Positions 1,385-33,682 of a stretch of 64,000 bases of DNA are shown piece by piece (position 1 is the first letter of the stretch; the number at the start of each line of letters is the position of its first letter). This DNA comes from Gammaproteobacteria bacterium. Its GTDB lineage: Bacteria > Pseudomonadota > Gammaproteobacteria > UBA4575. Below the pieces are notes generated by a model that made no database searches, was not told the origin of the DNA, and saw only the letters and a program-made list of their open reading frames with translations. Both the position numbers and the translations under genes were made by a program. Location of the stretch: assembly GCA_965214675.1 (NCBI GenBank), contig OZ243969.1, forward strand, positions 1,666,482 through 1,730,481. Reading direction: 5' to 3'.

Positions 1385-2185
1385 TTACTTGGGTTGCAGG
1401 TGGCGGATCAGGTTATGGTTGCAGTAGTTTTGTGTATCCAGGATCAGGCGCTCCTGCAGGAGCTGGAGCTGGTACACGATGAACATCAGCACGATACTGA
1501 TACACAAGGCGATCAGGGTGGAGTTGAAGGCTACACCCAGGCTTTCCGTGACTCCGGCAATGTCCCCTTCCACGGCCTTGTGCGCCTGACCCAATGCATC
1601 GCCGATACCGCGCACAGTTCCGAGAAACCCGATGGAGGGAATTGCCCAGGTGATGTAACGGATGATGGACAATTCGGAGTCGAGGCGCTCGGCTTCGGAT
1701 TCGCATACGATCTGGGTGGCGGTGGAGACATCCTGGATGCTGCACGTGGAGTTGAAGCGGTGCAAGGCGACCAACAGGGCACGCGGCAGCAGGCAGTCCT
1801 GCTGTTCTTGCGTCAGGGCCTGGATCTGCCGGGTGAGCTTATGCGTGTCCTGTGGCAGGAACTTGATGCCCTCCTTGGCGTGCAGCAGGTTCATTTCCAG
1901 CATGCCTCTTTCGCGCAGCAGGTGGGCGCTCTTGTAGCTCATGATCACCAGGGCCCACAGCATGAGAATGAAGCAGGCCTCCTGTTCGTAGTCGCGCACC
2001 AGCACATACACCGAGCGTTTCGGCACGTAGTCCTGGTCCAGGTTGATCTGGGCGGCCTGGTACTCGAGTTCAGCTTCGGCATTGGGCCGGATCACGGTGA
2101 CATAGGCCGTGTGCACGACGATCATGATCAGCAGCAGGCTGAAGACCTGATAGGTAAGCTCGGAGGAAAACGGTTTTATTGTCAC
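1385..2185 (-). CDS. MotA/TolQ/ExbB-family proton-channel protein
   Basis: 266 aa with multiple TM helices and the family signature IPSIGFLGTVRGIGDALGQA. Its start overlaps the stop of the upstream small gene in an ATGA arrangement. No ExbD/TolR/MotB-like partner is encoded in the window. Confidence 0.6.
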   Translation of the reverse strand: MTIKPFSSELTYQVFSLLLIMIVVHTAYVTVIRPNAEAELEYQAAQINLDQDYVPKRSVYVLVRDYEQEACFILMLWALVIMSYKSAHLLRERGMLEMNLLHAKEGIKFLPQDTHKLTRQIQALTQEQQDCLLPRALLVALHRFNSTCSIQDVSTATQIVCESEAERLDSELSIIRYITWAIPSIGFLGTVRGIGDALGQAHKAVEGDIAGVTESLGVAFNSTLIALCISIVLMFIVYQLQLLQERLILDTQNYCNHNLIRHLQPK

Positions 2186-2187
2186 GT

Positions 2188-2427
2188 TCAGATGTCCGTT
2201 GGAAAACTGACCGGCTTGTCGGCCGAGACTTCTTCGCTGGGCACGAACTCCTCCAGGGGCGGGAGCTGAAATCTGCGGTCTCGCGAAAACCTCACGTCGG
2301 TGGCGCTCTCCTCACCTTGTTCTGCTGCAACCGTGCCGACGTTTTCAGGAAGATCGTCGATGTGCTCGGATGCCCCTGCCAGTGCCGGACACAGCGCCAT
2401 CCACAGCACGGCCGTGTGAAGTCTCAT
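2188..2427 (-). CDS. Small secreted acidic protein (signal peptide)
   Basis: 79 aa. N-terminal MRLHTAVLWMALCPALAGA looks like a signal peptide, and the mature part is Glu/Asp-rich. It is tightly packed between the FHA/PEGA gene and the MotA-like gene. Confidence 0.4.
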   Translation of the reverse strand: MRLHTAVLWMALCPALAGASEHIDDLPENVGTVAAEQGEESATDVRFSRDRRFQLPPLEEFVPSEEVSADKPVSFPTDI

Positions 2428-2433
2428 CGTACA

Positions 2434-4821
2434 CTAGTCCAGGTAGCGTGCAATTCGAAAGCCAAGATCGACATGTCTTTTATTATCCTGATCCCGGTAA
2501 CTGAGTCGAGTGTTGCTGAGGTCGCTTCGCTTCCAGGAAGCGCCACGAACCACATGCTTGGTGCCCGTCGCAGGCCCTGTAGGATCCACATAGACGGCAT
2601 CGCTCAGGGCAGGATACAGGCCATGGTAGTCATGACTCCATTCGGCAACGTTGCCATCCATGTCAAACAGTCCCAGTGGGTTGGCCCTGAAGCTGCCCAC
2701 CGGTGCCGCCACTGCAAAGCCATCATCATACTCGTCCAGGGTGACCTCAAGAATGCCGGCCGCTGCGCGATCGGCATAGTTGCCCGTAATTTCAACCGGT
2801 GGATAGTTCTCGCCCCAGGCGTATTTCGCCAGCGTGCCATCGGCCTGCCAGCGGGCTGCCCATTCCCATTCACTTTCCGTGGGCAGGCGATACCCTGACG
2901 GGATCGGATTCTTGGCCATCCAGTTTCCGTTTCTTTCTTCGTACACGGCGTTCAACCCTTCCTGTTCACTCAGCCAGTTGCAATAGCGTACCGCATCGGC
3001 CCAGGTGATGTTGACTACCGGCAATTCAGGTGCTGACAGGTCATACCCCCTGTAGCTGCCGGAGTGATGAGAGGCCATGAAGGCTGCAAAACGGCCGTTG
3101 GTCACTTCGGTGGTCGCCAGATAGAACGGGCGTTGCAGTGAGACCGTGTGCAGGGTCTCGTTGGTGCGCCGCCCCTGCTCGCGCCTCGGAGCCCCCATGG
3201 AAAACTCGCCACCCTGCAGGCGTACCAGTGTCTCACCCAGATGATTGCGGATGCGCGCGGGCCCGGTACGGGGTCCATGGTCTGCCGATGGCTTCAACGA
3301 AACCTCGATCACTTGAGGGGCCTGCGGTTTCGGAGTCATGGTCTGTGAGTGGCTTTCGTAACCGGATTTTCGTACCTCAAGGCGATGCGGTGCACTCGGC
3401 AGGCTGAGCCGGAGTCTGCCGTGACCTGCCGACTGGCCCTGGACCAGTACCTCGGCGTCTTCAGGCACCGGGTGCACGATCACGGTCCCGAGGATCGCCT
3501 CGAGGCGGGCATTCACCGTCTGTTGCTCGCCGGGCCGGATACGAAGGCTTTGCCGGCTCGGGCGGTACCCGGGCTTGGTCAGGGTCAGGCGGTGTTGGGC
3601 ATTGGGTGCCAGGGCGATGGTCAGCGGAGTGGTGCCTTTTTCAACGCCTTCGATGAACACATGGGCACCTGAAGGCCTACTGGCGATCAGCGCATGGCTG
3701 GTTCCTGTCTGCAAGTGCACGGGTGCCAGCGCGAGTGGCTGGTCCGCCAGCACCCGGAAATCCGAAGTATGGGTGAGGTAATCTGGATGGCGCAGGTCCA
3801 GCCGGTACTCTCCCGCCATCAACTCCAGGCGCACGGGCGTTTTGCCTCTGCGGACACCGTTCAGCCAGACCTCGGCCAGTTCCGGTCGCGAATCGATGGA
3901 CACCTCGGACCATCCTGGCTGCAACTGTATCCGGAGATCCTGTTGAACCAGTTCGCCCTGCATGACCAATTGCGTCGTATACGGAAGGTAGCGCTCGGCG
4001 AGCGCCTGCAGCGTATAGGTCCCCGCCGGCAACTCGATGCGTTCGACCGGGGTGACTCCGAAGGGTTTGTCATCGATCAGCAGGTGCACGCCATGTTCGG
4101 GGACGCTGGTAATGTTCAGGTAGCCGGAATGTTTGAGCAGGGTGAAGGCGAGGGTCTGGGATGCGTGTGTACCGACCCGGATCTCATGGTCCAGGGGGTG
4201 GTACCCGGCCCGGGTTGCCTGCAGGCGGTATTCGCCCGGACGTACCAGATAGCGCCCGCGTATCTTGAGTGGCCACGGGGTGCCTTGCAGGCGGACCGAA
4301 TCCGCGGCTGGATCAATCTCGATTTTCAGGCTCTTGGCCGTAAATACATGGACCACGAGCAGCACCAGGGTGATCAACACGGCCGCACCTGCAAGGGAGA
4401 GAGCGCCGCGCAACCGCCACCCTGATTTTCTGGCAGCCATTTTGGGAGGCACCAGCGGCGAAATCACCTCGCCATGAGGCACCACAGGACGCGTATCGCT
4501 GTCCTGGCCGCAGGGCCCGTCCACTACGGAAATCGAGAAGGTATTGCCGACATGTGCGATCTGAAAGTGGGTCGCCTCGATTTGCAGTATGTCCCCGGGG
4601 TGCAATGCCGTTGGAACTTCCACGCGGTGGTGGTTCAGCCGCACCTCAATGTCCGCATCCTGAGGTTCGATATAGACCTGGTTGGCATGGATACTCAGAA
4701 GCGCTGCCGTTGCGCCTGCATGGACCTTTGATGCAAGCTTCAGTGGAAAATCGGCCGGAGTGTGCTGCCGTTGTCCTTGCGCATCCGTGACGAGGATCTG
4801 CTGGATGACTTTATTTGACAT
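2434..4821 (-). CDS. Multidomain envelope protein: FHA-like N-terminus, one TM helix, about 5 PEGA repeats, and a C-terminal FGE-sulfatase (SUMF1/PvdO-like) domain that lacks the catalytic Cys pair
   Basis: 795 aa. The N-terminus has an FHA-like motif (SKVHAGATAALLSIHANQVYI...HPGDILQIEATHFQI). A hydrophobic helix (LSLAGAAVLITLVLLVVHVF) is followed by repeated PEGA-like units, for example PSGAHVFIEGVEKGTTPLTIALAPNAQHRLTLTKPGYRP. The C-terminus carries FGE-sulfatase motifs (GGEFSMG, TEVTNGRFAAF, RLPTESEWEWAAR, GNVAEWSHD, VVRGASW) with only one Cys in the whole domain. Confidence 0.6.
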   Translation of the reverse strand: MSNKVIQQILVTDAQGQRQHTPADFPLKLASKVHAGATAALLSIHANQVYIEPQDADIEVRLNHHRVEVPTALHPGDILQIEATHFQIAHVGNTFSISVVDGPCGQDSDTRPVVPHGEVISPLVPPKMAARKSGWRLRGALSLAGAAVLITLVLLVVHVFTAKSLKIEIDPAADSVRLQGTPWPLKIRGRYLVRPGEYRLQATRAGYHPLDHEIRVGTHASQTLAFTLLKHSGYLNITSVPEHGVHLLIDDKPFGVTPVERIELPAGTYTLQALAERYLPYTTQLVMQGELVQQDLRIQLQPGWSEVSIDSRPELAEVWLNGVRRGKTPVRLELMAGEYRLDLRHPDYLTHTSDFRVLADQPLALAPVHLQTGTSHALIASRPSGAHVFIEGVEKGTTPLTIALAPNAQHRLTLTKPGYRPSRQSLRIRPGEQQTVNARLEAILGTVIVHPVPEDAEVLVQGQSAGHGRLRLSLPSAPHRLEVRKSGYESHSQTMTPKPQAPQVIEVSLKPSADHGPRTGPARIRNHLGETLVRLQGGEFSMGAPRREQGRRTNETLHTVSLQRPFYLATTEVTNGRFAAFMASHHSGSYRGYDLSAPELPVVNITWADAVRYCNWLSEQEGLNAVYEERNGNWMAKNPIPSGYRLPTESEWEWAARWQADGTLAKYAWGENYPPVEITGNYADRAAAGILEVTLDEYDDGFAVAAPVGSFRANPLGLFDMDGNVAEWSHDYHGLYPALSDAVYVDPTGPATGTKHVVRGASWKRSDLSNTRLSYRDQDNKRHVDLGFRIARYLD

Positions 4822-4835
4822 CGGCGCTTGTTGGA

Positions 4836-6395
4836 TCAGATCGTCTCTTTACACGAAATATGCACGCGTCCGTTTTTCATGTCCGGGGTCACGTTGAGAG
4901 TTTTTCGAACGTCTCGATAACCTGGTCGAGAGCCGAGGATCGTGTAGCGTCCTGGCCGAAGTTGCACGTCGTAGTGCTCGAATCGTCCGAGCTGGCCCAC
5001 CCGGAAGATGCTCACGTCGGTCTGGTTGTCCGAATACAGGGCAATTGAGACGGGCTGGCGGGCCTGTTCGATCACATCTTGCAGGGCGTTGGCTGCTTGC
5101 AGGATTCGCCGACCCGGACTTTCGTCAAGTGATACGATTTCATCCAGCAATGTCTGCACCTCAGCCGATACTTCAGCCGAGTACAGGCGCTCGCTGTGCT
5201 CAAGATAACCCCCCAGCATTGCCAGCAAGGCTGCACGGGATCTTGATCGCTCGGCGGCCTCCCTGGCATGGGCGGTCTGCGGGGCGAGCGCCAGAAGCTG
5301 CTGCCAGCTTTGTGCGGCATGTTCCCAATCCTCGCGTTCCTCAAAATGAAGAGCCTCGACTTCCAGTTTCGCGATTTTTTCCTCGAGCTCAATCTGGTCG
5401 ATTCTGAGCAGCCCCTGCGCCGGCCGGTCCGAATCAGGAACCAGAGCCTGCGCCTTGTGAAAGGCGGTGCGGGCATCATCAAACTGGCGGTCCTTTAGCG
5501 AGTCGTACGCGCGAGTCATCCACCGGGAAAACTCCTCCTGGTTCAATTGCTCAGTTATCCGGTTTAGAGCCGCCACCGCCTCGCCCGACAGCGGGTCCAG
5601 GGCGACGGCCTCCCGGTAGACCTGTTCAGCACCCTGAAGATGGTTGGCCGCTTCGAGGTTGCCGCCCCTGTCCAGCAAAGCGAAAAGTTCACTGAGCGTC
5701 GCCGCTCGCGAAAGGCCATCGAGAGCCTGGCGGTTCTGGGAATCCACGGCGAGTGCCAGGTTGAAATGATGTGCAGCCACCTCGCCCTGGTTTCTCGACA
5801 GGGCCTGCAGGCCCTGCTCAAGGGCTTCATCCAGCACGGCGGCGGCCTGTTTTTGAAGTGCTTCAAGGAGGTCAATCGCCTGTTCATAGTGATCGGCTGC
5901 CTCGGCAAACGCCTGCTCGCGAAAATGAGCATCGCCGTCGTGTCCCCTCGCCATTGCCTGGTCGTAGCCATCACGGGCCCACAACTCAACCCCCTGTTGT
6001 TGCAGGGCCTCCTGTTTTTCAAGCAGGTCCAGGAGCAGCTTTTCCGCATGCAGTTTCAAGGCCGTAATCTCCGGATCTGAAACCCCAGCCTGATTTTTGG
6101 CAAGCGCCTCTGGCATGCCGCTTGGCTCGGACAGGGGCTCCGGGGGCTCGAGCAGGTGTACGGGGGGCTCCTCGCTCAGCGGGCCATCCGTTCTTTCGCG
6201 ATCGACCCATTCAGGCAACGCCAAGAACACGAGTGCCGCGACGGCCACCAGTACGAAGAACAGGACAGTCGGCAGGGCTGCACTGCGCGCATCCTTCGAC
6301 CGTGTCCCGGCCGCAGACGGCGTTCGCACGGTGTCAGGGTCAATCTTTTTAACAGGGGTGGAATCGTCTTTTCGCATGGCAGGTAAAAATCGCAC
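4836..6395 (-). CDS. Transmembrane TPR-repeat protein with a Pro/Glu-rich linker and a C-terminal PEGA domain
   Basis: 519 aa. A TM helix (LPTVLFFVLVAVAALVFLAL) is followed by a TonB/TolA-like Pro/Glu linker (EEPPVHLLEPPEPLSEPSGMPE). Then come long TPR-like helical repeats and a C-terminal PEGA-like segment (LRPGRYTILGSRPGYRDVRKTLNV). Confidence 0.5.
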   Translation of the reverse strand: MRFLPAMRKDDSTPVKKIDPDTVRTPSAAGTRSKDARSAALPTVLFFVLVAVAALVFLALPEWVDRERTDGPLSEEPPVHLLEPPEPLSEPSGMPEALAKNQAGVSDPEITALKLHAEKLLLDLLEKQEALQQQGVELWARDGYDQAMARGHDGDAHFREQAFAEAADHYEQAIDLLEALQKQAAAVLDEALEQGLQALSRNQGEVAAHHFNLALAVDSQNRQALDGLSRAATLSELFALLDRGGNLEAANHLQGAEQVYREAVALDPLSGEAVAALNRITEQLNQEEFSRWMTRAYDSLKDRQFDDARTAFHKAQALVPDSDRPAQGLLRIDQIELEEKIAKLEVEALHFEEREDWEHAAQSWQQLLALAPQTAHAREAAERSRSRAALLAMLGGYLEHSERLYSAEVSAEVQTLLDEIVSLDESPGRRILQAANALQDVIEQARQPVSIALYSDNQTDVSIFRVGQLGRFEHYDVQLRPGRYTILGSRPGYRDVRKTLNVTPDMKNGRVHISCKETI

Positions 6396-6430
6396 GCCTC
6401 CCTACAACATTGTCGCGTACTGCGTGCAGT

Positions 6431-7603
6431 TTAAATACTGTCCTGGAGGATCTTGTCCGCAGGCAGGCCCGTCTCTTGCAAATAGATTTCGCGCAACAGT
6501 TCGCGCCACTGGCGGTACTGTTCTTCAAGGGTGCCCGTGATCTCAACCGTGCGGCCCTGAATGTCCAAGACCAGGGGTTTCACCTCGGCCTTGAGGGAAT
6601 CTCCGAGTTCGCGGATGGCATCATCGTGAATCTGTGCTTCCCTGGCAATGTCGATGCCATCCTTGTACAACATGGCGCCGGTCGTCACAACGCCCGGGTA
6701 GTCTCTCAGCAGGCCCACAATCATGATCGCGGTGGCGGCAAGCTTGGTCCGGTTCGCGCGGCGTTCAATGGCCCGTTTTTGCTGGAGTTCAAGAAGGTAA
6801 TACCGGCGCCAGTTCGTATAGGGCCAGTGCATCACACTGTGAAAATTTGCGTAGTGCTCATTGATCGTATCGACGAACAGGTAGTCGCGTTCGCGGATCT
6901 TGCGTACCCGTTGCAGCATGGGATCATTCTTGGCCGGCAAGCGAGCCAGTTGCACCTGTCCGTTTGGCAGCCACACAAGATAGCCGGAAAACGAGTCGGG
7001 CGAGATGCTGGCGGCATAGCGCAACTCGGAGGTGTTTCGTATGCGGAGCAGTTGCCGGGCCGCCAGTTTCTTGCGGTGCCGGTAAATGTCATTGGCGATG
7101 CGGTTGTAGACGTGTTGGTAGACATCATCCCCTGGCTGGATGTCGACGTAGTCGTGTTCTGTCAGCTTGGCCTTGTACTTCCTGTCGAACCACAGGGTGC
7201 CGGTACTGTCCGAGACATGAGTGTGCAAAACCAGCGTCTCACCGTTTGAGATGATGATGGTGGCGCGTACGATGACATCCGCAATATGGGAGGCGGCCGG
7301 CAGCACCCGGATGGCGCCCCAACCGTAGGCGTGCTGCAAGGTCTCTTTCAGGTGATAGGCCATGTAACGCGCTTCGGCCGCACGGATATCCTCGTGGATA
7401 TTCTCCTCTTCCTGTTCTGGGGTAATCTCACCTTCATCGAACAGGAGCACCCCGACGTCCAGCAGAAGACTGTCCTGCAATTGCACCGTCTGCGATTCGA
7501 TTTCTTCCCCGCCTGAAACCCGTACCGTGTTCAGCGAACAGCTGCTAACCAACATGGCGATGGTCAGCCACAGGCACACCATCGAGTTTCCGGGCAGGGT
7601 CAT
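6431..7603 (-). CDS. Lipoprotein of unknown function
   Basis: 390 aa with a signal peptide and a lipobox (LVSSC). It has no recognisable catalytic motif and overlaps the upstream gene by 4 nt. Confidence 0.45.
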   Translation of the reverse strand: MTLPGNSMVCLWLTIAMLVSSCSLNTVRVSGGEEIESQTVQLQDSLLLDVGVLLFDEGEITPEQEEENIHEDIRAAEARYMAYHLKETLQHAYGWGAIRVLPAASHIADVIVRATIIISNGETLVLHTHVSDSTGTLWFDRKYKAKLTEHDYVDIQPGDDVYQHVYNRIANDIYRHRKKLAARQLLRIRNTSELRYAASISPDSFSGYLVWLPNGQVQLARLPAKNDPMLQRVRKIRERDYLFVDTINEHYANFHSVMHWPYTNWRRYYLLELQQKRAIERRANRTKLAATAIMIVGLLRDYPGVVTTGAMLYKDGIDIAREAQIHDDAIRELGDSLKAEVKPLVLDIQGRTVEITGTLEEQYRQWRELLREIYLQETGLPADKILQDSI

Positions 7604-8277
7604 TCGACTTCAGAGGAGGTCGAGGGCGTTACGCTCGCCTGTTGCTTCTTGTATTTGCGGTACTCGTCCCACAACTTCTCCCTGAGCACAGGATCGCGCT
7701 CGTTTTGTGCGGCTTCTCGAAGCTGGCGGGCGACAACATCGTCATCATCACCGCTGGGGATGTCGGCCGGTGGGGGTACCCGGTGCGCACCTCGTGTTCC
7801 ATGCTCGTCACTGCCTTCATCCGGATCGTCACCGGGTCCGCCGGACTCCGGGTTGCCCGCCTTGGCTACGGACCGGTCGGGCAGGCCTGCATCTGCCGGG
7901 TGTTCAGCCCCGTGCATATCTTCTGACCCGGATTCAGGCGCTTGTATATCTCCTGCAGCGGACGGCTGGTGGGCTTGTCTTTCGGCTTGCGCTTTTTCAA
8001 ATTCCTCGTGAATGGCTTCATCGTAGCGGCCCAGCGCCTCTTCGAGCTGCTGATCCAGCACAGCCACTTTTTCATCTTCGGTAGTGGCCGCGGCTTGCTT
8101 GTCTTTGGATGGCCGTTCATCCGGGGACCGTGCATTGTCTTCGGTTTGATTTTCAGTGGAAGGTGGCGAGTCAGGTGTCTGTGTGCGTGACTGGCGCTCC
8201 GGCTCCAGTGTGCTGCAGGCACCAAGCCAGACACCGAGCAACAAGATCAACAGGCACCGGAGGTCATGTGTTGTCAT
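7600..8277 (-). CDS. Acidic low-complexity lipoprotein
   Basis: The track ORF 7600..8433 starts at a far-upstream alternative codon. An internal ATG at 8277 gives MTTHDLRCLLILLLGVWLGACS, which is a signal peptide plus lipobox. The rest is Asp/Glu/Pro/Ser-rich. It is the first gene of the operon, after the 8278-8480 intergenic region. Confidence 0.45.
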   Translation of the reverse strand: MTTHDLRCLLILLLGVWLGACSTLEPERQSRTQTPDSPPSTENQTEDNARSPDERPSKDKQAAATTEDEKVAVLDQQLEEALGRYDEAIHEEFEKAQAERQAHQPSAAGDIQAPESGSEDMHGAEHPADAGLPDRSVAKAGNPESGGPGDDPDEGSDEHGTRGAHRVPPPADIPSGDDDDVVARQLREAAQNERDPVLREKLWDEYRKYKKQQASVTPSTSSEVE

Positions 8278-8480
8278 TGTTCTGCAATTCTGCCCGGCAC
8301 GTATTTCTGGGTCCGGATGAGATCTATTGAATATCACTATACTTGAATTGAGATCAGGTAGGGTAGCCTGCACCCGCGCCCGACAGAGGGCAAAAACGAT
8401 TGATTGGAATCCCTTATAGGGTCCATAGGTCACCGTGGAATTTGATTGACAAGCTCATGCATGGCGCCTAGAAAGGTGAC

Positions 8481-9293: not shown

Positions 9294-9402
9294 TCTGTCA
9301 GGCGCCGGTGAATCTTTGTGGGACCACGGCTGGCGAGCGCCTGCACACCCTGCAGTGGATACACAGGACCCTTATCGCCGTGGGCCGGGGCAAGAACCTG
9401 GG

Positions 9403-9918
9403 TTACTTGTGCAGGATTCCGCATGCAATACGGGGTCCAGCCGCTCCTGCAGGATCCGATTTGTAATCATCTGCGCCCTCGTGAATCACGATGGCCGCGC
9501 CGTCTTCATCGAACAACGCCGTATCCAGTACAAGCTGGGTATTCAGGATCTCGATCTCCAGACTCCCCGATTCCGGTACGTGGATATTCGGCATGTCGCC
9601 GGCATGCATTCCATCCTCGCCCAGGATGCCATGGTTGCGACCCTCCGGGTTGTAATGGCCGCCCGCTGACTTGAATGGTGGTTCGCATTTTCCGATGGAA
9701 TGCACATGGAAGGCATGGGCACCCGCTGGCAGGTCGTGCAGCTTCACGTGCAGGAGCGTGCCATGCGAAGTCCTGTGAAGGGTGGCCATCCCCACAGCGT
9801 CTCCGTTTGCGTTTTGTAATTTGGCGTATGCCTGTTTTGCGGCGCCGGCAAACTGCGGCATCACGGCCAACGCAAGGATGACGAGCAGTGCGGATACTGT
9901 GCGGTATCGGATAGTCAT
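9403..9918 (-). CDS. sodC: Periplasmic Cu/Zn superoxide dismutase
   Basis: Signal peptide followed by the motifs HAFHVHSIGKCE, GGHYNP, HAGDMPN, DDYKSDPAGAAGPRIACGIL. Confidence 0.8.
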   Translation of the reverse strand: MTIRYRTVSALLVILALAVMPQFAGAAKQAYAKLQNANGDAVGMATLHRTSHGTLLHVKLHDLPAGAHAFHVHSIGKCEPPFKSAGGHYNPEGRNHGILGEDGMHAGDMPNIHVPESGSLEIEILNTQLVLDTALFDEDGAAIVIHEGADDYKSDPAGAAGPRIACGILHK

Positions 9919-10012
9919 ATCTTTCCCCTTACCAATCTACGAAGATCGGTGATAATGGAAAGGCGATTCTAACACCGGGATTGATGATTACGAAAACGGA
10001 GCCCGAAGGCAT

Positions 10013-10537
10013 CTATCGAAGGACCAGGCTCAATATCAACAGACCGCTCAGGATCGCGCTCGCGAGCTTCCAAAAAGTGCAGGGTGCCTCTCCAGCAGGG
10101 GTGCTGACCCGGCACGGCGGACCAGATTCTGCATCCAGAGTAGAAAGATCGGCGATGAACTCTGACAAGGTTTCATATCTGTCGGACGGGTTTTGCGCCG
10201 TCGCCTTGGCCAGTGTCAAGTCAATCTACTTCGGCAGGCCGCCACCCTTTGCGAGCGGGACATAGGCGCGGTTCACGTACGCGCGCGCATCACGTGCCAG
10301 CGGCGGGCGGTACGGCAGTTTACCGGCTAGCATTTCGCAGGCGACGATGCCCAGGGCATAGAGGTCTGCGCTGTGCGTTGCAGGCTGACCCTGCAGGCAT
10401 TCCGGGGCGACATATCCGACCGATCCAGCAGGACAGGACTCCCGGACCACGGAATCGAGTTCGTCAAGGCCCTGTACATAGGCGGTGCCGAAGTCGATGA
10501 TCAGTGAATCAATAAATTTGTTTTTAAAGACGTGGCT
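10013..10537 (-). pseudogene. Ser/Thr protein kinase remnant: subdomains VII-XI plus the C-terminal TM helix only, interrupted by an in-frame TAG
   Basis: Frame reads IIDFGTAY...SVGYVAPE...DLYALGIVACEMLAGKLPY, then a stop at 10228-10226, then ...NPSDRYETLSEFIADL and a TM helix. There is no N-terminal catalytic half. The frame begins immediately after the TGA of the upstream Fe-S gene at 10540-10538. Confidence 0.65.
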
Positions 10538-12256
10538 TCAGTGACCTGAAAGCGGCACGCCTACGGCCGGATTGGCGGCCAGGCCGATATCTCGAGCGTG
10601 CTGCTCGAAAGCCTTGTTCTTCCAGAAGAATGCACCCGGTATCGTCGTGGGGGTAACCACCACGTAAAACAGCGCGCGACCCGAGACTGCAACAAGCAGG
10701 CTGAGCGTGGCTGCGAGCATCCACGGCAGTGGATGGGTGATGCCGGCCAGGCCCAGCACGACCACGAGCAGCAGGGCACTGGCCAGAAGCGCGTTCCTGA
10801 GGTAGTAGACACGGCTAAAGGTTGTGGTCTGCACATAGTGCGAAACCGCGCCTTCGTGCGATGCGCCGGCCATGTCACCCCGGTGCCCGATCAGGCCCAG
10901 CGATTCCAATGCCAGGCCAGCGGCGATTGCAATCACCACGGGCAGGGATACTCCGGGAGTACTGGCAAGAGCCACCCAGCCGCCCAATGCCAACGACGTT
11001 CCGACAAAGGCGGTGGCAGTCTGCCAGTGGTTCCAGAACGGTCGAGCAGGAATCGTGTAGCAGCGCACCATGAAATAAAGTGTTGCAATGCCTGCAGCAA
11101 CTGCAAACAGGCCTGACAGGAGCGCTGTACTGTCGTAGCCTCCCAGGTGGGCGAGGAAAAACAGGCCGGTAGCTGCGCCGAACAAGGCACTCGCCAGCGC
11201 TTCGCGGCTCAGGTTCGAGTGGCGCAGGTTATTGAAACCACGGTAGAACCGCATTTTCTTGCCAAGATGCGCCGTCGAAGCCAGCATGCCGACGACTACG
11301 AGTGCGAGTGCAGCGAATGCGATCCAGCCCCCGGCCACCCCGGCAGCAAACGCGACTGCGAAGGCACCCACGCCGGCCTGCACTGCCAAGGTGAAGGCCA
11401 CCAGCGGGGTTTCCCGCGATGACAGGCGCGCGAGATTCCAGCGTTTCCGTACCCCCTGTTTGGGATCGATGACCGGGTGGAACGAGCGATCATCACCCTT
11501 GCGGTACTTGATGGGTTCCGAGTCCGGTCGTGTGACTTCAAGTGGTGCCTGTTTCACTTGCTGGAAACGGATATTCGGATTCGTGATCCCGGGGTCGGGA
11601 AACCCGGGGATGCATGTCTCGACTTGCTCGCGGCCCCTCGGCACGTTCTCGACCACGCCAAAATCCAGGGCGTTGCCCACGCAGGCGGACACGCAGGCCG
11701 GCTTCAAGCCGACCTCCAGTCGATCCACGCACATGTTGCACTTTTCGACCTGGCCTGCCACCGGATCAAGTTGCGGGGCATTGTACGGACAGACCCAGGT
11801 GCAGTAGCCACAGCCGAAGCAGATATCAGGATCCTGAATCACGGCACCATATTCAGGGTGCTTGGTATAGGCCCGCGTTGGACAACCCTTCAGGCAGACA
11901 GGGTCGTCGCAGTGGTTACAGGCCATCGAGAGGTTGATGCGTGTGTAGTCAGGATAGGTTCCCCCTTCCACGTAACCCACGGATCGAAAGCTCAAGTGTG
12001 CCGGCAGGTCATTTTTCTCGCTGCATGCAGCCTCGCACGCGTGACAGCCAATGCAGTTGTCCGCGGTGAAGTGGAATGCGTGCTGCTGGGTGCGGTTCGG
12101 GTTGTCACCGATGCCGGCATCGCCATTGATGTGGAGACTGACACCGCGCTCGCCATCTGCCAGCAGCTGGATCGGCTTGCCGTAGCGGTTCAACGCCTGC
12201 GCAGGGGTATCCGAAAGCCTGGCGTAGTCCGGTTCGTCGGTACGTAACGGAATCAC
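10538..12256 (-). CDS. Fused 4x[4Fe-4S] ferredoxin (DmsB/NrfC-like) and polytopic membrane anchor (DmsC/NrfD-like), no Tat signal
   Basis: Four Cys clusters (CIGCHACEAAC, CNHCDDPVCLKGCP, CFGCGYCTWVCP, CNMCVDRLEVGLKPACVSAC) are followed by about 8 hydrophobic helices. It is translationally coupled to the upstream molybdoenzyme gene (start/stop at 12256). Confidence 0.6.
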   Translation of the reverse strand: MIPLRTDEPDYARLSDTPAQALNRYGKPIQLLADGERGVSLHINGDAGIGDNPNRTQQHAFHFTADNCIGCHACEAACSEKNDLPAHLSFRSVGYVEGGTYPDYTRINLSMACNHCDDPVCLKGCPTRAYTKHPEYGAVIQDPDICFGCGYCTWVCPYNAPQLDPVAGQVEKCNMCVDRLEVGLKPACVSACVGNALDFGVVENVPRGREQVETCIPGFPDPGITNPNIRFQQVKQAPLEVTRPDSEPIKYRKGDDRSFHPVIDPKQGVRKRWNLARLSSRETPLVAFTLAVQAGVGAFAVAFAAGVAGGWIAFAALALVVVGMLASTAHLGKKMRFYRGFNNLRHSNLSREALASALFGAATGLFFLAHLGGYDSTALLSGLFAVAAGIATLYFMVRCYTIPARPFWNHWQTATAFVGTSLALGGWVALASTPGVSLPVVIAIAAGLALESLGLIGHRGDMAGASHEGAVSHYVQTTTFSRVYYLRNALLASALLLVVVLGLAGITHPLPWMLAATLSLLVAVSGRALFYVVVTPTTIPGAFFWKNKAFEQHARDIGLAANPAVGVPLSGH

Positions 12257-14439
12257 TAGAACGTCCTCAAGGCTGTGTTTTGCAGCGCGGCTTCATGCTG
12301 GTCGACAGACTCAATGCGCACCGCGCACTGCTTGAACGCCGGCTGTCTCGAATACGGATCGAGCAGGCCCAGGGTCAGCCGATTGACGCACTCGTGGAAG
12401 TGAAACGGGATGAATACCATGTCGTTCGGCACACGCTGGGTGCACTGGACCATCACCACGGCATCGCCGCGGCGGGACACCAGCCGGGCATAGCCCATGT
12501 GGTCCACGCCCAGCTCATCGGCTGCATCCGGGTTCATCTCCATGTACGGTGTCGGCGAAAACTTGTTGCAGTCACCGACCTTGCCGGTCTTGGTTCTGGT
12601 GTGAAAGTGTTCCACCACGCGTCCACTGTTCAGCCAGAACGGGAAGTCTGCATCCGGGCGCTCGTTATTTTCGAGGTACGGCAACGAAAGCAACTTCGCC
12701 TTGCCGTCAGGAAATGCAAAAACACCATCGGTATACAGGCGCGGTGCGCCTTTCACCTCACCTTCCCGCATCGGCCACTGCAGACCGCGTGCGCGCTCGA
12801 TCCTGTCGTAGCTCATGCCTGAAATGTCGAGGTTCCTGGTCTGCCCCTTGGAGAGCTGCTTCATTTCCTCGAACGCGGCCTGCGGTGTCTCGGGCCAGTT
12901 CATGTTCGCTGCACGATCCCAGCGTTTGGCGAGTGCCGTGAAAATCCAGTGGTCCGGTCTCGAGTCCGCGTAGGGCTCGCTGACCGGCCGCGTCAGGTTG
13001 ACGCGACGCTCGGTGTTGGTGAAGCAACCCTCCTTCTCGGCCCACACAGAAGCTGGCAGGAAGACATGGGCGTAGTCCGCGGTCTCGGTGTCCTCGTAGG
13101 CATCCTGTACGACACAGAAGTCGAGCTTTTGCATGGTTTTGCGGATACGCGGCGAATTCGGCATGGAGGTCAAGGGATTCGTGGCGATCACCCAGAGGGC
13201 CTTGATCTGGCCGGTTTCAATGGCGGGAAAAATGTCTGTTTGAAACAGGCCGCGCTGCTTCGGGAAGAACTCCGGATCAACGTTCCAGAACTTCCCGACT
13301 TCCTCGCGATGGGTCGGGTTCTCAAGTTGCCGATAGCCAGGCAAGCCCGAACACGACGACCACTCGCGGGTACCCATGGCATTGCATTGCCCGGTGATCG
13401 ACAGGCTCGTGCCACCGGGTTTGCCGATATTCCCGGTAACGAGATTGAGATTGTTAATCGCGCAGACACCATCGGTACCGTGGGTCGACTGGTTGATGCC
13501 CATCGTCCAGATTGCCATGGCCGCATCGGCATTACCGTACAGGCGAGCCACGTGTCGAATGGTGTCCTCATCAATGCCGCAGATCTTCGCGGCCGTGGAC
13601 GGGTCATAGCGTGCAACAGTGGCTGCGAAGTCCTCGAATCCGTGCGTGTGCGCGCGGATAAAGGACTCATCGTGCAGGCCATCTTCGAGAATGACGTGGC
13701 ACAGGCTGTTGAGTAACACAAGGTCGGTGCCCGGAGTGACGGGCAGGTGGATATCCGCGAACTGCGCGAACATGGTGACACGCGGATCGACAACGATGAT
13801 CGGAAACCGACGCTTCTCAAGCGCCTCTTTCAGGCGCCAGTAGATAATCGGGTGCTGTTCCGGGAGGTTGGAACCGAACGCGAGCAGGCAGTGCGTGTGA
13901 TCGAAGTCGGCATAGCATCCAGGGGGACCGTCTGCTCCGAACGAGCGCTTGTAACCTGACACGGCGGAGGCCATGCAAAGGGTCGTGTTCCCGTCATAGT
14001 TGTTCGTGCCGATCACACCCCTTACCAGCTTTCCAAGCGTATAGAACTCCTCGGTCATGATCTGACCGGTGGATACCACGGCCACGGCATCGCGCCCGTG
14101 CTCGGCTTGAATTCGCTTGAACTCGCCGGCGACACGATCAAGTGCAGTGTTCCAGTCCGTACGCTGCCAGTGTTCATAAATGCGGTTGCGTACTTTGGGT
14201 GAGCCGCCGCGACCGGGCGCTGCAAAAATCTGTGCCTGGGTCAGTCCCTTGATGCAGAGCTTGCCACGATTAACATCGGCACCGCCGAGGCCACGTGCAG
14301 TGACCGGCTTGCCCTCACTATCCACACCGACCTCGACGGAACAACCCACGGAGCAATATCCACAGGTCGTGTATTTCCAGTCGACAACGCCCTTGTCGGC
14401 GATGCGGATGGGGTTTTTGGTGCGGCGACCGAACAGCAT
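12256..14439 (-). CDS. nasA: Assimilatory nitrate reductase catalytic subunit (molybdopterin oxidoreductase, cytoplasmic)
   Basis: N-terminal Fe-S motif TTCGYCSVGCSVEV....KLCIKG with no Tat signal, and MoCo-oxidoreductase family similarity throughout. The track start (GTG at 14529) would overlap nirD by 79 nt. The internal ATG at 14439 overlaps by 13 nt and is preferred. Confidence 0.6.
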   Translation of the reverse strand: MLFGRRTKNPIRIADKGVVDWKYTTCGYCSVGCSVEVGVDSEGKPVTARGLGGADVNRGKLCIKGLTQAQIFAAPGRGGSPKVRNRIYEHWQRTDWNTALDRVAGEFKRIQAEHGRDAVAVVSTGQIMTEEFYTLGKLVRGVIGTNNYDGNTTLCMASAVSGYKRSFGADGPPGCYADFDHTHCLLAFGSNLPEQHPIIYWRLKEALEKRRFPIIVVDPRVTMFAQFADIHLPVTPGTDLVLLNSLCHVILEDGLHDESFIRAHTHGFEDFAATVARYDPSTAAKICGIDEDTIRHVARLYGNADAAMAIWTMGINQSTHGTDGVCAINNLNLVTGNIGKPGGTSLSITGQCNAMGTREWSSCSGLPGYRQLENPTHREEVGKFWNVDPEFFPKQRGLFQTDIFPAIETGQIKALWVIATNPLTSMPNSPRIRKTMQKLDFCVVQDAYEDTETADYAHVFLPASVWAEKEGCFTNTERRVNLTRPVSEPYADSRPDHWIFTALAKRWDRAANMNWPETPQAAFEEMKQLSKGQTRNLDISGMSYDRIERARGLQWPMREGEVKGAPRLYTDGVFAFPDGKAKLLSLPYLENNERPDADFPFWLNSGRVVEHFHTRTKTGKVGDCNKFSPTPYMEMNPDAADELGVDHMGYARLVSRRGDAVVMVQCTQRVPNDMVFIPFHFHECVNRLTLGLLDPYSRQPAFKQCAVRIESVDQHEAALQNTALRTF

Positions 14440-14450: not shown

Positions 14451-14792
14451 TTAATGGCGGACCTGGATCCGACCCGCAATGACGCGAGTCGGGTACGTGC
14501 GGATTGAGACCGCATCGTCCTCGATACACTGGCCCGTTTTCAGGTTGAAGTGTTGTTTATAGACAGGTGAGGCCACCACAAGCTGCCCCTTAAGGTCCCC
14601 GACAATTCCGCGTGAAAGTACGGGCACGTTACTGAACGGATCGATAGCATCGATCACGAAGATGTCGTCAGAGCACGACACGCGAAACACCGCGACCTGG
14701 TCGTCACCTAGCAGCGCTCTTACACCCACATCGGGTATCAGCGCATCGAGTTCACAAACAGTGGTCCAAGGCATGGCTGGCATCCACTTCAT
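14451..14792 (-). CDS. nirD: Nitrite reductase [NAD(P)H] small subunit
   Basis: 113 aa, Rieske-like NirD family, overlapping the nirB stop by 4 nt. Confidence 0.7.
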   Translation of the reverse strand: MKWMPAMPWTTVCELDALIPDVGVRALLGDDQVAVFRVSCSDDIFVIDAIDPFSNVPVLSRGIVGDLKGQLVVASPVYKQHFNLKTGQCIEDDAVSIRTYPTRVIAGRIQVRH

Positions 14793-17329
14793 GCAACTTC
14801 CGAAGCCAGCGCCGGGCGCCGTTGGCTTCGTTCCCGAACGAACACCAAAGACTCGTCACCTTTTTCGCTGTTGACGAACGTGCGAAAGTGCTTGCGTTTC
14901 TCTTCGTCCTCGACCACTGATTTCCACTCGCACTCGTAGGTATCCACGATGTGCGCCATTTCCGCTTCGAGGTCGGTTGCTAGTCCCAGCTTATCGTCGA
15001 TGATGACCGACTTCAGGTAGTCGAGACCACCTTCCAGGTTTTCCATCCACACCGAGGTCCGCTGCAAGCGGTCCGCGGTACGGATATAGAACATCAGGAA
15101 TCGGTCGATGAATTTGATCAGCGTTTCATCATCGAGACCCGTGGCAAACAGGTCCGCGTGCCGCGGGCGCATGCCGCCGTTTCCACAGACGTACAGGTTC
15201 CAGCCGATCTCGGTGGCAATGACGCCGACATCCTTGCTTTGCGCCTCGGCACACTCGCGCGTGCAGCCGGACACCGCAAATTTCAGCTTGTGCGGTGCGC
15301 GTAATCCCTTGTAGCGGTTCTCGATGTGAATGGCCATGCCGACACTGTCCAGCACACCGTAACGACACCACGCAGTACCGACGCAGGACTTCACCGTACG
15401 CACGGCCTTGCCGTAGGCATGGCCCGTCTCAAAACCGGTATCGATCAGTTCCTTCCAGATCATCGGCAACTCGTGAACCTGCGCACCAAACAGGTCAATG
15501 CGCTGGCCGCCGGTAATTTTCGTATACAGGTCATATTTTTTGGCGACCTGACCCAATGCAATCAGCTTGTCCGGTGTGATCTCGCCCCCTGGCACACGCG
15601 GCACAATGGAATACGTACCGTTTTTCTGCAGGTTGGCAAGGAAGTGGTCGTTGGTATCCTGCAGTGGTGCATGGGACTTCTTCAGCACGTGGTCGTTCCA
15701 GCACGCAGCGAAGATGGATGCGGCGGTCGGCTTGCAGATATCACAACCATGGCCTGTGCCGTGTTTTTCGATGAGTTCCTCAAATGTCGTAATGCGATCA
15801 ACGCGCACGAGGTGGTAAAGCTCCTGGCGCGTGTGCGCAAAATGCTCACAGATATCCGTGCTTATTTCGAGGCCGAGGTTTTCGAGTTTGGCATTCAGCA
15901 CCTGCGTTATGAGTGGCGCACAGCCGCCGCAGCCAGAGCTAGCCTTTGTGCAGCTGCGAATGCCCGCAAGGGTAGTCGCGCCGTCGGCAATCGCACCTGT
16001 GATTGCAGCTTTTGACACGTCGTGGCAGGAGCACAGCTGTGCTGTATCCGGGAGTGCCGCAACGGCCCCGGCAGGTAGGCCACCGCCATCGCGTTGCGGC
16101 AGGATCAACGCGTCCGGGTGTTTCGGCAATGCCAGTTCATTGAGCATGGTTTGCTGCAGCATGCCGTAGTCGGCCGTATCACCTACCAGCACGGCGCCGA
16201 GAAGTTTTTTGCCGGTCTTGTTGACGACGATGCGCTTGTAAATGTGATTGCGTTGATCGATGTAGGTATAGGTGTCAGCACCCTTTGTTCGAGCATGTGC
16301 ATCACCCATGCTGCCAACGTCGATGCCAAGAAGCTTGAGCTTGGTACTCATGTCGGCCCCGCGAAAAACCGCATCGGACTCTTTGGCCAGAACACCGGCC
16401 GCCGTTTTGGCCATTTCGTATCCAGGGGCGACCAGTCCGAATATTTGCCCCTCGTAGAGTGCACATTCGCCGATGGCAAGAATGCTCGGATCAGAGGTGG
16501 TACAGAATTCGTCAATGACGATACCGCCACGTTCACCGATCACCAGGCCACATTCGCGTGCGAGCTCATCGCGCGGTCGGATGCCGGCCGAAAAGACCAC
16601 CAGATCAGTTTCAAGCACTTCACCGTCGGCAAACTCCAACCGGTAACGAGCCGATTCTCCGGGCACGATCCGCTGTGTGTTTTTGCCGGTATGCACGGCA
16701 ACACCCAGCGATTCGATCATGGTGCGCAGCATGGCGCCTCCCCCGTCGTCCAGCTGCGTGCTCATGAGTACGGGCGCGAACTCCACGACGTGGGTGGTGA
16801 GCCCCATGTTCTTCAGCGCATTTGCTGCTTCCAGGCCCAGCAGACCACCACCGATCACAACACCAATTTTGGCATCGGTGCCGGATGCCTTGATCGCGTC
16901 TAGGTCCTCAATCGTGCGGTAGACGTGGCAGTGGGGCAGGTCGTTGCCAGCGATGGGCGGAACGAACGGGTACGAGCCCGTCGCCATAACAAGAGCGTCA
17001 TACTCAGTGGTATGCCCGCCACTGCAACGTACCGTCTTCGATGGGCGATCAATTTCCAGGACGCTCACACCCAGATGATACGTGGCAGGGGTACCAGCCG
17101 GTACTGGCTCCAGGGCAAGATCCGTCGCGCTGTGGCCGTTGAAATACTCGCTCAAGTGGACGCGGTCGTACGCACCACGCGGTTCCTCTCCGAATACCGT
17201 GATCCTGATATCCGGGTTATCTGCGGCACGTTCCACGAAACGGTGGCTGACCATACCGTTGCCGACCACCACGACGTGCGTGCTTTCGTGTGGTTTTGTA
17301 CCCATGGCCGATGGAAGTGCAACTTCCAT
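14789..17329 (-). CDS. nirB: Nitrite reductase [NAD(P)H] large subunit
   Basis: 846 aa. It has an FAD/NAD-binding N-terminus (VVVGNGMVSHRF), BFD-like 2Fe-2S segments and a sirohaem/4Fe-4S C-terminus. Confidence 0.8.
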   Translation of the reverse strand: MEVALPSAMGTKPHESTHVVVVGNGMVSHRFVERAADNPDIRITVFGEEPRGAYDRVHLSEYFNGHSATDLALEPVPAGTPATYHLGVSVLEIDRPSKTVRCSGGHTTEYDALVMATGSYPFVPPIAGNDLPHCHVYRTIEDLDAIKASGTDAKIGVVIGGGLLGLEAANALKNMGLTTHVVEFAPVLMSTQLDDGGGAMLRTMIESLGVAVHTGKNTQRIVPGESARYRLEFADGEVLETDLVVFSAGIRPRDELARECGLVIGERGGIVIDEFCTTSDPSILAIGECALYEGQIFGLVAPGYEMAKTAAGVLAKESDAVFRGADMSTKLKLLGIDVGSMGDAHARTKGADTYTYIDQRNHIYKRIVVNKTGKKLLGAVLVGDTADYGMLQQTMLNELALPKHPDALILPQRDGGGLPAGAVAALPDTAQLCSCHDVSKAAITGAIADGATTLAGIRSCTKASSGCGGCAPLITQVLNAKLENLGLEISTDICEHFAHTRQELYHLVRVDRITTFEELIEKHGTGHGCDICKPTAASIFAACWNDHVLKKSHAPLQDTNDHFLANLQKNGTYSIVPRVPGGEITPDKLIALGQVAKKYDLYTKITGGQRIDLFGAQVHELPMIWKELIDTGFETGHAYGKAVRTVKSCVGTAWCRYGVLDSVGMAIHIENRYKGLRAPHKLKFAVSGCTRECAEAQSKDVGVIATEIGWNLYVCGNGGMRPRHADLFATGLDDETLIKFIDRFLMFYIRTADRLQRTSVWMENLEGGLDYLKSVIIDDKLGLATDLEAEMAHIVDTYECEWKSVVEDEEKRKHFRTFVNSEKGDESLVFVRERSQRRPALASEVA

Positions 17330-18837: not shown

Positions 18838-18913
<76 letters not shown>

Positions 18914-31969: not shown

Positions 31970-33379
31970 ATGTCTGCAAGCGATGTTATCAAAATGATGA
32001 AGGATAACGATGTTCAGTTCGTTGATTTACGGTTCACCGATACCCGGGGAAAGGAGCAGCATGTCTCCATACCGGCCTCTGTCGCAGATGAGGATTTTTT
32101 TGAAAATGGCAAGATGTTTGACGGCTCATCCATTTCCGGCTGGAAAGGAATTAATGAGTCGGACATGGTATTGATGCCAGACCTTGGCACGGAAGTGATC
32201 GACCCGTTTTACAATGACTCGACCCTGAGCCTGCGTTGTGATGTCCTCGAACCCTCCACCATGGAAGGCTATATCCGTGACCCGAGATCCGCCGCCAAGC
32301 GTGCGGAAGCCTACCTGCGCTCCACGGGGATTGCGGACACGGCCTATTTCGGGCCCGAACCCGAGTTTTTCGTTTTCGATGACGTGAAGTGGTCGAACGA
32401 GATGTCGGGTGCCTCCTATGCGATCGACTCCGAAGAGTCAGCATGGAATTCAAACAAGGGCTACGAAGAGGGCAATATCGGCCACCGTCCAGGCGTGAAG
32501 GGCGGCTACTTCCCGGTCCCTCCAGTAGACTCCCTGCAGGATGTGCGCTCTGCAATGTGCCAGGTGCTCGCCCAGATGGGCGTTGGGGTGGAAGTTCATC
32601 ACCACGAAGTCGGCACCGCCGGGCAATGCGAAATCGGCACGCGTTTCAACACCCTCACCGTGCGTGCGGACTGGAACCAGATCCTGAAGTACGTGGTCAT
32701 GAATATTGCGCATAACTACGGTAAAACCGCGACCTTCATGCCGAAGCCGATTGTCGGCGACAACGGCAGCGGCATGCACGTGCATCAGTCCCTGTTCAAG
32801 GAGGGCGACAACCTCTTTACCGGAGACATGTACGGCGGCATGTCGCAAACAGCGTTCTACTACATCGGCGGCATCATCAAGCATGCCCGTGCGATCAATG
32901 CTTTCTCCAATGCCACCACGAACAGTTACAAGCGCCTGGTGCCCGGCTTCGAAGCCCCCGTGATGCTGGCCTACTCGGCCCGCAACCGCTCGGCGTCCAT
33001 CCGGATTCCACATGAAGCCAATGCCAAGGCGAGGCGCATCGAAGTTCGCTTCCCGGATTCTGCTGGCAATCCCTACCTGACCTATGCGGCTCTGCTGCTG
33101 GCGGGTCTTGACGGTATCCAGAACCAGATCGATCCGGGTGCTCCGATCGACAAGGATCTCTATGACCTGCCTCCCGAGGAAGAAGCCAACATTCCAACGG
33201 TGTGCGCTTCTCTTGACCAGGCACTGGAAGCCCTGGACAACGACCGCGAATTTCTCAAGGCGGGCGGAGTGTTCTCTGATGACCTGATCGACGGTTATAT
33301 CGAACTGAAGATGGAAGAGGTGACCGCGTTGCGCATGTCGACCCACCCCATCGAATTCGATATGTACTACAGCTGCTAG
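31970..33379 (+). CDS. glnA: Glutamine synthetase type I
   Basis: 469 aa, canonical GSI sequence. The adenylylation-site region and catalytic motifs are present. Confidence 0.95.
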
Positions 33380-33401
33380 CCGCACCCCACTCGATCTATC
33401 C

Positions 33402-33431
33402 AAAAACGCCCCGTAATGGGGCGTTTTTGTT
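33402..33431 (+). terminator. Rho-independent terminator of glnA
   Basis: AAAAACGCCCCgtaatGGGGCGTTTTTGTT, a perfect GC stem followed by a U-tract. Confidence 0.85.
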
Positions 33432-33682
33432 AGGGATTGCGCGTTAGCCCCGCTTTCCTGCGGTTTCTTTATTTTGCTCTGATATTCAGCTTTCAGGGTG
33501 CTCTTTGACTTCTAGGGGCGTATGATCAAAGCAACTTTGCACCTATTTAGTGCATTTCAAGCCCGGGCTTTCATTGGCTGCTGGTTCGACAGGCCAACGT
33601 CGCGGGTTGGACTGAAAATTGCACGGTATTTGGGAGACAGCCGCTTTTCTGCAAGGAACGACAACATCCTCGTGCACACGCT

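Follow-up and report, generated by a model that had tools for sequence, protein, structure and literature searches.

The kinase relic and its reading

The DNA analysed here is a stretch of 64,000 nucleotides (the window) from a gammaproteobacterium of the lineage UBA4575 (assembly GCA_965214675.1, contig OZ243969.1, positions 1,666,482 to 1,730,481). Its minus strand carries nitrate-assimilation (nas) genes that end in FeS/DmsC, a gene for a fused iron-sulfur protein and membrane anchor, and between this gene and the superoxide dismutase gene sodC lie the remains of a Ser/Thr kinase gene, hereafter the relic (Table 1). It is very probable that the relic is the non-functional 3' end of a narK-linked gene for a PP2C phosphatase/kinase fusion, left by one blunt 2,677-bp deletion and decayed since then.

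On the minus strand from 10537 to 10013 the translation reads SHVFKNKFIDSLIIDFGTAY...GSVGYVAPE...DLYALGIV...LPK, a stop, and IDLTLAKATAQNPSDRYETLSEFIADL...FWKLASAILSGLLILSLVLR up to a second stop. The relic begins IIDFGTAY and lies in the frame of the FeS/DmsC gene, whose TGA occupies 10540-10538. The DFG motif is at 10495-10487, the APE motif at 10408-10400, the internal TAG at 10228-10226 and the terminal TAG at 10015-10013. The match to Pfam Pkinase (E=5e-11) covers profile positions 139-198 of 263 and that to PK_Tyr_Ser-Thr positions 144-249 of 258, which is far beyond chance. Residues 381-543 of an intact ortholog, P0086, align to the window by tblastn with 78.5% identity (E=1.6e-71), and the amino-acid identity of the relic to the intact proteins P0086 and P0090 is 78.5-83%. 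The first-pass annotation, a reading of the letters alone, had described subdomains VII-XI of a membrane Hanks-type kinase with a C-terminal transmembrane (TM) helix and an in-frame TAG, and had taken them for a decayed remnant; both points are borne out.

Of the 556 codons of the intact gene 164 are left. They keep DFG, APE and subdomains IX-XI, and the C-terminal anchor FWKLASAILSGLLILSLVLR agrees with the family consensus. The Gly-rich loop and the catalytic Lys (VAIK; K284 in P0086) are absent from the window in all frames, and tblastn of the 64 kb likewise found no N-lobe, HRD loop or PP2C sequence in any frame, which bears out the earlier statement that no Gly loop, VAIK or HRDLKP is encoded. 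The HRDLKPxN catalytic loop stands directly 5' of IIDFG in the related contigs L004, L005 and L089 and is missing here. There is no start codon at the junction and no uninterrupted open reading frame (ORF). Lacking Gly loop, Lys, HRD loop and start, the window copy is not a functional Hanks-type Ser/Thr kinase (PF00069). A promoter and terminator scan of 9300-10700 gave no site on the minus strand, and no Rfam family matches the relic in a search of the window; co-option of the relic as an RNA element or terminator has no support in either search.

Table 1. Features of the relic, its lesions and the adjoining genes (window coordinates).
Feature	Position	Strand	Basis or remark
Pseudogene relic	10013..10502	-	Last base of codon 392, codons 393-556 and stop of the ancestral 556-aa PpkB-like gene
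Content of the relic	10013..10502	-	Kinase subdomains VII-XI and C-terminal TM anchor
Deletion junction	10502..10503	.	L005 839/3517 and L089 1773/4451 both abut here
Native FeS/DmsC-narK spacer, first 35 bp	10503..10537	-	AT-rich, not kinase sequence; alignment to L005 806-839
6-bp in-frame deletion, two codons lost	10245..10247	-	KGGRGDLPKW to KGGGLPK-stop; window-specific, beside 10246
Nonsense change, TGG (Trp) to TAG	10226..10228	-	TGG in L005, L004 and L002; window 10227 = A, L005 = G
+1 insertion (T), frameshift	10126	-	Absent from L005, L004 and L002
-1 deletion in T-run	10073..10078	-	Gap placed at 10077; restores frame 49 nt after +1
Tail-anchor helix remnant (FWKLASAILSGLLILSLVL)	10019..10075	-	Family consensus LFWKLxSxxLxxLLVLxLxL
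sodC, Cu/Zn superoxide dismutase, downstream synteny anchor	9403..9918	-	Sod_Cu 5e-37
FeS/DmsC, 572-aa DmsB-like 4Fe-4S/DmsC membrane-anchor fusion, intact	10538..12256	-	Fer4_11 2e-23, DmsC 6e-15
Molybdopterin oxidoreductase (Mo subunit), NasC/Fdh-alpha-like, 727 aa	12256..14439	-	Pfam, NCBIfam; L006 ortholog 727 aa
nirD, nitrite reductase small subunit, 113 aa	14451..14792	-	L006 ortholog 111-aa Rieske_2; tblastn matches L010-L012
nirB, nitrite reductase large subunit, 846 aa, first operon gene	14789..17329	-	NF011565, 1274 bits vs cutoff 883

A single deletion removed narK and the 5' part of the kinase gene

Two close relatives, L005 and L089, are 94-97% identical to the window on both flanks of the junction. 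In L005 the gene order is DmsC, a gene of the major facilitator superfamily (MFS; 490 aa), PP2C/Pkinase (556 aa), Sod_Cu and FA_hydroxylase, that is, the order of the window with two genes more. By blastn, L005 57-839 corresponds to window 11286-10503 (96.7%) and L005 3517-5931 to window 10502-8093 (94.4%); the two matching blocks abut in the window, and the 2,677 bp between them (L005 840-3516) are missing. The independent assembly L089 (GenBank MKWU01019214.1) gives the same result: its positions 1-1773 equal window 12275-10503, its positions 4451-4711 equal window 10502-10242 (97.3%), and again 2,677 bp are lacking. The deletion starts 35 bp past the stop of FeS/DmsC and reaches codon 392 in the kinase gene. 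It took the complete MFS gene, whose product is a NarK-family nitrate/nitrite transporter (TIGR00886, 331 bits vs cutoff 311.7), and codons 1-392 of the fusion gene with the PP2C domain, Gly loop, catalytic Lys and HRD loop. The catalytic half had been thought to be replaced; instead it was removed in one event together with narK and the PP2C domain, which the first-pass annotation had not foreseen, as L005 and L089 both indicate.

The junction is blunt, ...TTGATTCACT being directly followed by GATCATCGAC..., and no microhomology, filler, direct repeat or mobile element was found at the deletion endpoints. The spacer at 10503-10537 is identical to L005 806-839 at 34 of 34 aligned bases, with one extra A at 10525. 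Since this spacer is native to the FeS/DmsC-narK interval, the junction is not the natural 3' end of the operon joined to foreign DNA. The GC content across the junction dips modestly at the AT-rich spacer (0.54-0.56) and stays within the range of the surrounding 5 kb, so that it gives no sign of foreign DNA either. Thus the proposal of a recombination junction at 10.5 kb holds in that the spot is a site of rearrangement, but not in that an operon end was fused to foreign sequence. The in-frame link of the relic to the TGA of FeS/DmsC is a one-in-three coincidence of the deletion length.

Later decay of the relic

Lesions were scored against L005 and checked in L004 and L002, these three being the relatives aligned across them. 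Apart from the truncation the 490-bp relic has four further lesions (Table 1), all of them in the window only and none in L005, L004 or L002. The TAG had been proposed as an inactivating change, and the TGG found in 3/3 relatives aligned at this codon agrees with it. After the TAG the window frame reads NPSDRYETLSEFIADL and then a hydrophobic C-terminus, and beyond the extra T the shifted frame reads NLVRRAGSAPLLERHPALF, as in homologs. The stretch STLDAESGPPCRVSTPAGEAPCT is thus out of frame between the +1 T and the -1 near 10077, its true reading being ..PNAELVRRAESAPLLERHPTLF... The earlier reading of 10228-10013 was correct in the TAG but missed the two frameshifts (+1 at 10126, -1 near 10077) and the 6-bp deletion beside 10246.

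Besides the four lesions, 25 substitutions separate the relic from L005. In 2,078 bp of flanking coding sequence (the FeS/DmsC 3' end, sodC and the fatty acid (FA) hydroxylase gene) there are zero indels against L005. Differing codons were nonsynonymous and synonymous in ratios of 11:13 in the relic, 6:19 in FeS/DmsC, 5:17 in sodC and 18:26 in the FA hydroxylase gene, all of them small counts, and the nonsynonymous excess in the relic is suggestive only as a sign of relaxed selection. Truncated at the orthologous locus and carrying further disabling mutations, 10013-10502 is a unitary pseudogene that arose by deletion.

The intact family and its pairing with narK

A protein search with the 174-aa relic gave eight matches, all short (123-252 aa), which reflect differing breakpoints, frameshifts or internal-Met gene calls within longer homologous regions. 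L004, a 1.65-kb contig of about 2x coverage, is 92.7% identical to the window from 10502 onward; its gene has the C-terminal part of the PP2C domain and a complete kinase domain with several frameshifts, followed by the same sodC, and its motifs are a Gly-loop-like ASGTRSHLYLV, LVLKTP, HRDLKPEN, DFG, APE and the TM helix. In L003 the PP2C-kinase gene is present in full, with a single frameshift, and the L001 copy starts at subdomain V in an unrelated context. L002, a gammaproteobacterial metagenome-assembled genome (MAG) at NCBI, is 94.9% identical to window 10407-2024 and its kinase copy is cut near the APE motif.

A second protein search, for which a full-length query was reconstructed from L003, returned 1,955 relatives; most of the best 120 listed are about 556 aa long with PP2C_2 and Pkinase domains, and some of these are named "bifunctional protein-serine/threonine kinase/phosphatase". 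The N-terminal PP2C domain of the orthologs, deleted in the window, has PP2C_2/SpoIIE matches. In an alignment of 23 sequences the kinase residues K284, H375, D377, K379, N382, D395 and G397 and the PP2C aspartates are invariant. Among intact proteins P0086, encoded on L005, comes closest to the relic (79% identity). NCBIfam holds no dedicated model for the bifunctional family, and its PknB and Stp1 models match below their cutoffs only. The PP2C-kinase fusions of acidobacteria, at about 28% identity, stand without a neighbouring narK and were set aside.

In L006, L007 and L008 (about 75% nucleotide identity) nirB-nirD-Mo subunit-FeS/DmsC-narK-PP2C/kinase form one block, and the genes downstream differ. 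A scan of reference-genome contigs was swamped by the generic HRDLKPEN pattern, and 4/80 loci (L009-L012) were true orthologs. There narK (68-71% identical) lies directly upstream of PP2C/kinase in Pseudomaricurvus sp. HS19, Thalassolituus sp. LLYu03, a Vibrio MAG and a Colwellia MAG, and nirB-nirD precede the pair in 3/4 of these loci. The conserved partner of the kinase is narK, which is directly upstream in every examined locus with a complete fusion gene. In the window narK is deleted, and both flanks (FeS/DmsC and sodC) are collinear with L005 and L089, in which narK precedes the kinase. It had been suggested that intact orthologs might neighbour FHA/PEGA operons: the orthologs exist, but the constant neighbour is narK upstream, and the genes downstream vary.

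Several observations concern individual relatives. At L002 4091-4900 (GCA_026710875.1, JAPOQE010000119.1) the truncation of the kinase relic lies 95 bp deeper than in the window, with homology from L005 3612; before it come 800 bp of DNA with 44% GC that looks non-coding, and a divergent gene for a 1,125-aa biotin carboxylase; no nas genes occur within 4.9 kb upstream on the contig. L001 7466-8759, on a 5.66-Mb circular contig of ENA ERZ25071132, encodes a 252-aa 5'-truncated kinase in an enoyl-CoA hydratase/DHDPS context, preceded by two tandem copies of a repeat element of about 40 codons (..GLDHLNYVESRSGTPFFQQLIICSVRVVNPAFAGP..). L003 1-8522, on a 153-kb contig of the same ENA set (ERZ25071132), has a decayed nas tail with the frameshifted PP2C/kinase and the MFS gene in three calls; a 177-aa DmsC 3' fragment is 68% identical to window 11104-10540, and the tail adjoins genes for an IS66 transposase, DruA and a ParB-like protein, with AbiEi downstream.

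Alternative explanations

The truncated gene could in principle be a conserved, functional pseudokinase that consists of the C-lobe only, or a small tail-anchored membrane protein, in this clade. This would fit with the relic search, which gave only proteins of the same C-terminal part, with the open frame of 123 codons that L002 keeps (annotated as a hypothetical protein), and with the two frameshifts of the window, which together restore the frame of the TM helix. However, the short matches differ in their 5' ends and contexts and are explained by frameshifts, deletions and internal-Met calls; they are fragments, intact 556-aa orthologs being abundant and the rule. In the window the copy is interrupted by a TAG and two frameshifts, and it has neither a start codon at the junction nor a promoter-like site on its strand. 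We therefore regard a conserved pseudokinase, the case that the first-pass annotation had named as its own refutation, as extremely unlikely.

Some points weigh against the decay of a deleted gene as we describe it, and several of them would equally suit the suspicion that assembly or sequencing produced the deletion, the stop or the frameshifts and that the real genome has an intact narK-ppkB pair. The deletion and the point lesions come from the assembled sequence, and the -1 sits in a homopolymer (the T-run), a typical site of sequencing error. A search of JGI metagenomes for the junction 24-mer gave no match, the junction was recovered from no other public assembly, exact matches to the FeS/DmsC and SodC proteins of the window are not on record, and a search with a conserved 32-mer matched the intact relative L089 only. 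The related low-coverage contig L004 has many frameshifts that are probably errors. In addition, the substitution divergence of the relic (94.9% identity) is not above that of the flanks (93.7-96.7%), its nonsynonymous excess rests on few codons with the FA hydroxylase gene also at 18:26, and for NarK as a substrate of PP2C/kinase no test was found in any organism. Against an artefact stand five independent lesions clustered in the 490-bp relic while the adjoining 2,078 bp of coding sequence have none, the lack of the endpoint repeats that an artefactual collapse needs, and the sister MAG L002 with its truncated copy and different breakpoint, which indicates that loss of the kinase gene is a real trend in the lineage. 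An artefact thus seems very unlikely. As the relic is no more diverged than its flanks, the deletion is young compared with the 3-6% by which these strains differ.

The remaining alternative supposes that the nas operon recombined into a free-standing kinase gene, the cognate of an FHA/PEGA system, and replaced its catalytic half. It draws on the position of the relic between the nas operon and a PEGA cluster, one of whose proteins (795 aa) matches FHA weakly at its N-terminus, and on L002, in which the PEGA cluster is present and the nas operon absent. In L005 and L089, however, FeS/DmsC-narK are directly upstream of the kinase, and what follows the FeS/DmsC stop in the window is its original spacer. 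The kinase gene accompanies narK in Pseudomaricurvus, Thalassolituus, Vibrio and Colwellia, the genes downstream vary, and the FHA match of the neighbour is below the Pfam threshold (E=0.012). The tie to an FHA system that had been proposed for the kinase finds no footing here, with narK upstream wherever the gene is complete, and we give this explanation next to no credence.

The nas operon and the surrounding genes

The window has full-length copies of all four nas genes, nirB, nirD, the Mo subunit and FeS/DmsC. FeS/DmsC, now the last intact gene of the operon, is 97.7% identical to the L089 ortholog and has the length of the L006 ortholog. The longest ORF of the Mo subunit has 757 aa (GTG at 14529) and overlaps nirD at 14451-14792; because the orthologs are 727 aa long, the start is probably the ATG at 14439 (MLFGRRTKNP...). 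The Mo subunit, on the minus strand, stays below every NCBIfam cutoff and has no twin-arginine signal obvious by eye. The pair of Mo subunit and FeS/DmsC (window 10538-14439, minus strand; L006 4599-8500; L008 39-3264; L089 20-1735) is conserved in the clade, but the nas clusters of Pseudomaricurvus, Thalassolituus, Vibrio and Colwellia lack it. Its composition suggests a membrane, quinol-linked and cytoplasm-facing nitrate reductase in an otherwise assimilatory nirB-nirD operon. A literature search gave no description of a DmsC-linked assimilatory nitrate reductase.

sodC has the same position in L005, L002 and L004. Downstream of sodC and the FA hydroxylase gene follows a conserved cluster (1385-8433, minus strand), collinear in L002, with genes for a 277-aa acidic low-complexity protein, a 390-aa protein without a family match, a 519-aa TPR protein, the 795-aa PEGA/FGE-sulfatase protein, a 79-aa ORF and a MotA/ExbB-like protein. 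The 795-aa protein has four PEGA repeats and an FGE-sulfatase domain, and its N-terminal FHA match reaches 16.4 bits vs a cutoff of 20.7 (E=0.012). In other genomes the PEGA cluster is unlinked to the kinase.

The window is chromosomal and carries glnA-ntrB-ntrC, glyS, ileS, ribF, murJ and proB. At 31970-36170 on the plus strand, about 15-19 kb from nirB, lie glnA, a PAS-HisKA-HATPase kinase gene (NtrB-like) and the gene of a sigma-54 activator response regulator (NtrC-like), and general nitrogen control appears intact. The tRNA genes at 18841-18913 (minus strand) and 54885-54958 (plus strand) are the only Rfam matches in the window at the gathering threshold.

Proposed history and function

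According to the gene order of the relatives, the ancestral operon was nirB-nirD-(NasC-like Mo subunit)-(FeS/DmsC)-narK-ppkB-like, followed by sodC, and its last gene coded for a membrane-anchored protein of 556 aa in which a PP2C phosphatase and a Hanks-type Ser/Thr kinase are fused. A single blunt deletion of 2,677 bp inside the operon then took narK and fusion codons 1-392, joining 35 bp of intergenic spacer to the codons from IIDFG onward. Without a start codon or catalytic core the relic drifted, acquiring the Trp-to-stop change, the 6-bp deletion and the +1 and -1 frameshifts. At most it would be transcribed passively, as the 3' tail of the nirBD-Mo-FeS/DmsC transcript.

The intact enzyme may sit tail-anchored in the inner membrane beside NarK and toggle phosphorylation through its opposed kinase and PP2C activities. 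By analogy with the systems discussed below, the intact protein might reversibly phosphorylate NarK or another nas component and in this way tune nitrate uptake. The loss of transporter and regulator in one event is consistent with both working as a unit. With nirB, nirD, the Mo subunit and FeS/DmsC full length, nitrite, or nitrate by another route, may still be assimilated, and the remaining reductase genes would depend on another uptake route.

The co-deletion of narK and kinase, together with the different truncation in the sister MAG L002, which has no nas genes in the 4.9 kb upstream, could mean that regulated nitrate uptake is being dismantled by selection in a host-associated gammaproteobacterial lineage while nirBD, Mo and FeS/DmsC are kept. 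We consider this unlikely, and expression of the 68-codon tail-anchored ORF at 10219-10013 less likely still. If the former were true, it would serve as a natural experiment and indicate that the PpkB-like enzyme plays no part outside the context of NarK.

For annotation it follows that 10013-10502 should be flagged as a pseudogene fragment, neither as two small ORFs nor as a kinase, and that the nas operon of this genome should be recorded without the NarK transporter and the PpkB-like regulator, which alters predictions of growth on nitrate. The shared adjacency and the joint loss provide comparative evidence for a functional tie of PP2C/kinase to NarK, which is a modest argument.

Comparison with known systems

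Eukaryotic kinases control nitrate transporters, as in CIPK-NRT1.1 of Arabidopsis and Npr1-Ynt1 of Hansenula (as cited in PMC3596284). The same logic is proposed for the intact bacterial gene, whose kinase is encoded beside a nitrate transporter and presumed to act on it; the likeness is one of analogy only, as the systems are not homologous and no bacterial experiment was found. To the PknB/Stk1 kinases the resemblance lies in the C-lobe motifs, and intact orthologs match NF033483 (PknB_PASTA_kin) over the kinase domain with E=8e-50, below the model cutoff. In contrast to these kinases, the PP2C/kinase family has no PASTA domain or other extracellular sensor; its members carry PP2C at the N-terminus and are fixed to the membrane by a simple tail anchor.

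The closest known counterpart is PpkB of Pseudomonas. In Pseudomonas sp. UW4 the order is nasST-nasA-ppkB-nasDEC-cobA, the Ser/Thr kinase gene ppkB being directly downstream of the NarK-family gene nasA, and the authors, who draw on plant and yeast systems as analogies, propose that its product phosphorylates the transporter (PMC3596284). In P. aeruginosa PAO1, PA1783 (nasA), PA1782 (ppkB) and PA1781 (nirB) are neighbouring genes that appear together among co-regulated genes (PMC6954232, PMC7214821), and PA1782 is one of the three Ser/Thr kinases of P. aeruginosa (PMC8560001). Genome studies of Pseudomonas have thus already remarked on the pairing of narK and kinase; an experimental test was not found, and for the function of PA1782/ppkB the literature gave genome descriptions and expression tables only. 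The likening of Pseudomonas PpkB to the PP2C-fused family is by gene order and annotation, not by sequence alignment. The relic differs from this type in being without PP2C, Gly loop, Lys, HRD loop and narK, and in its stop and frameshifts. It occupies the orthologous position between the nas genes and sodC, it keeps DFG, APE, subdomain XI and the TM anchor of the family, and the narK-kinase pairing of its relatives matches the published nasA-ppkB arrangement (PMC3596284). The relic is a member of a known and widespread PpkB-like family in a known genomic setting, an ordinary pseudogene rather than a new element.

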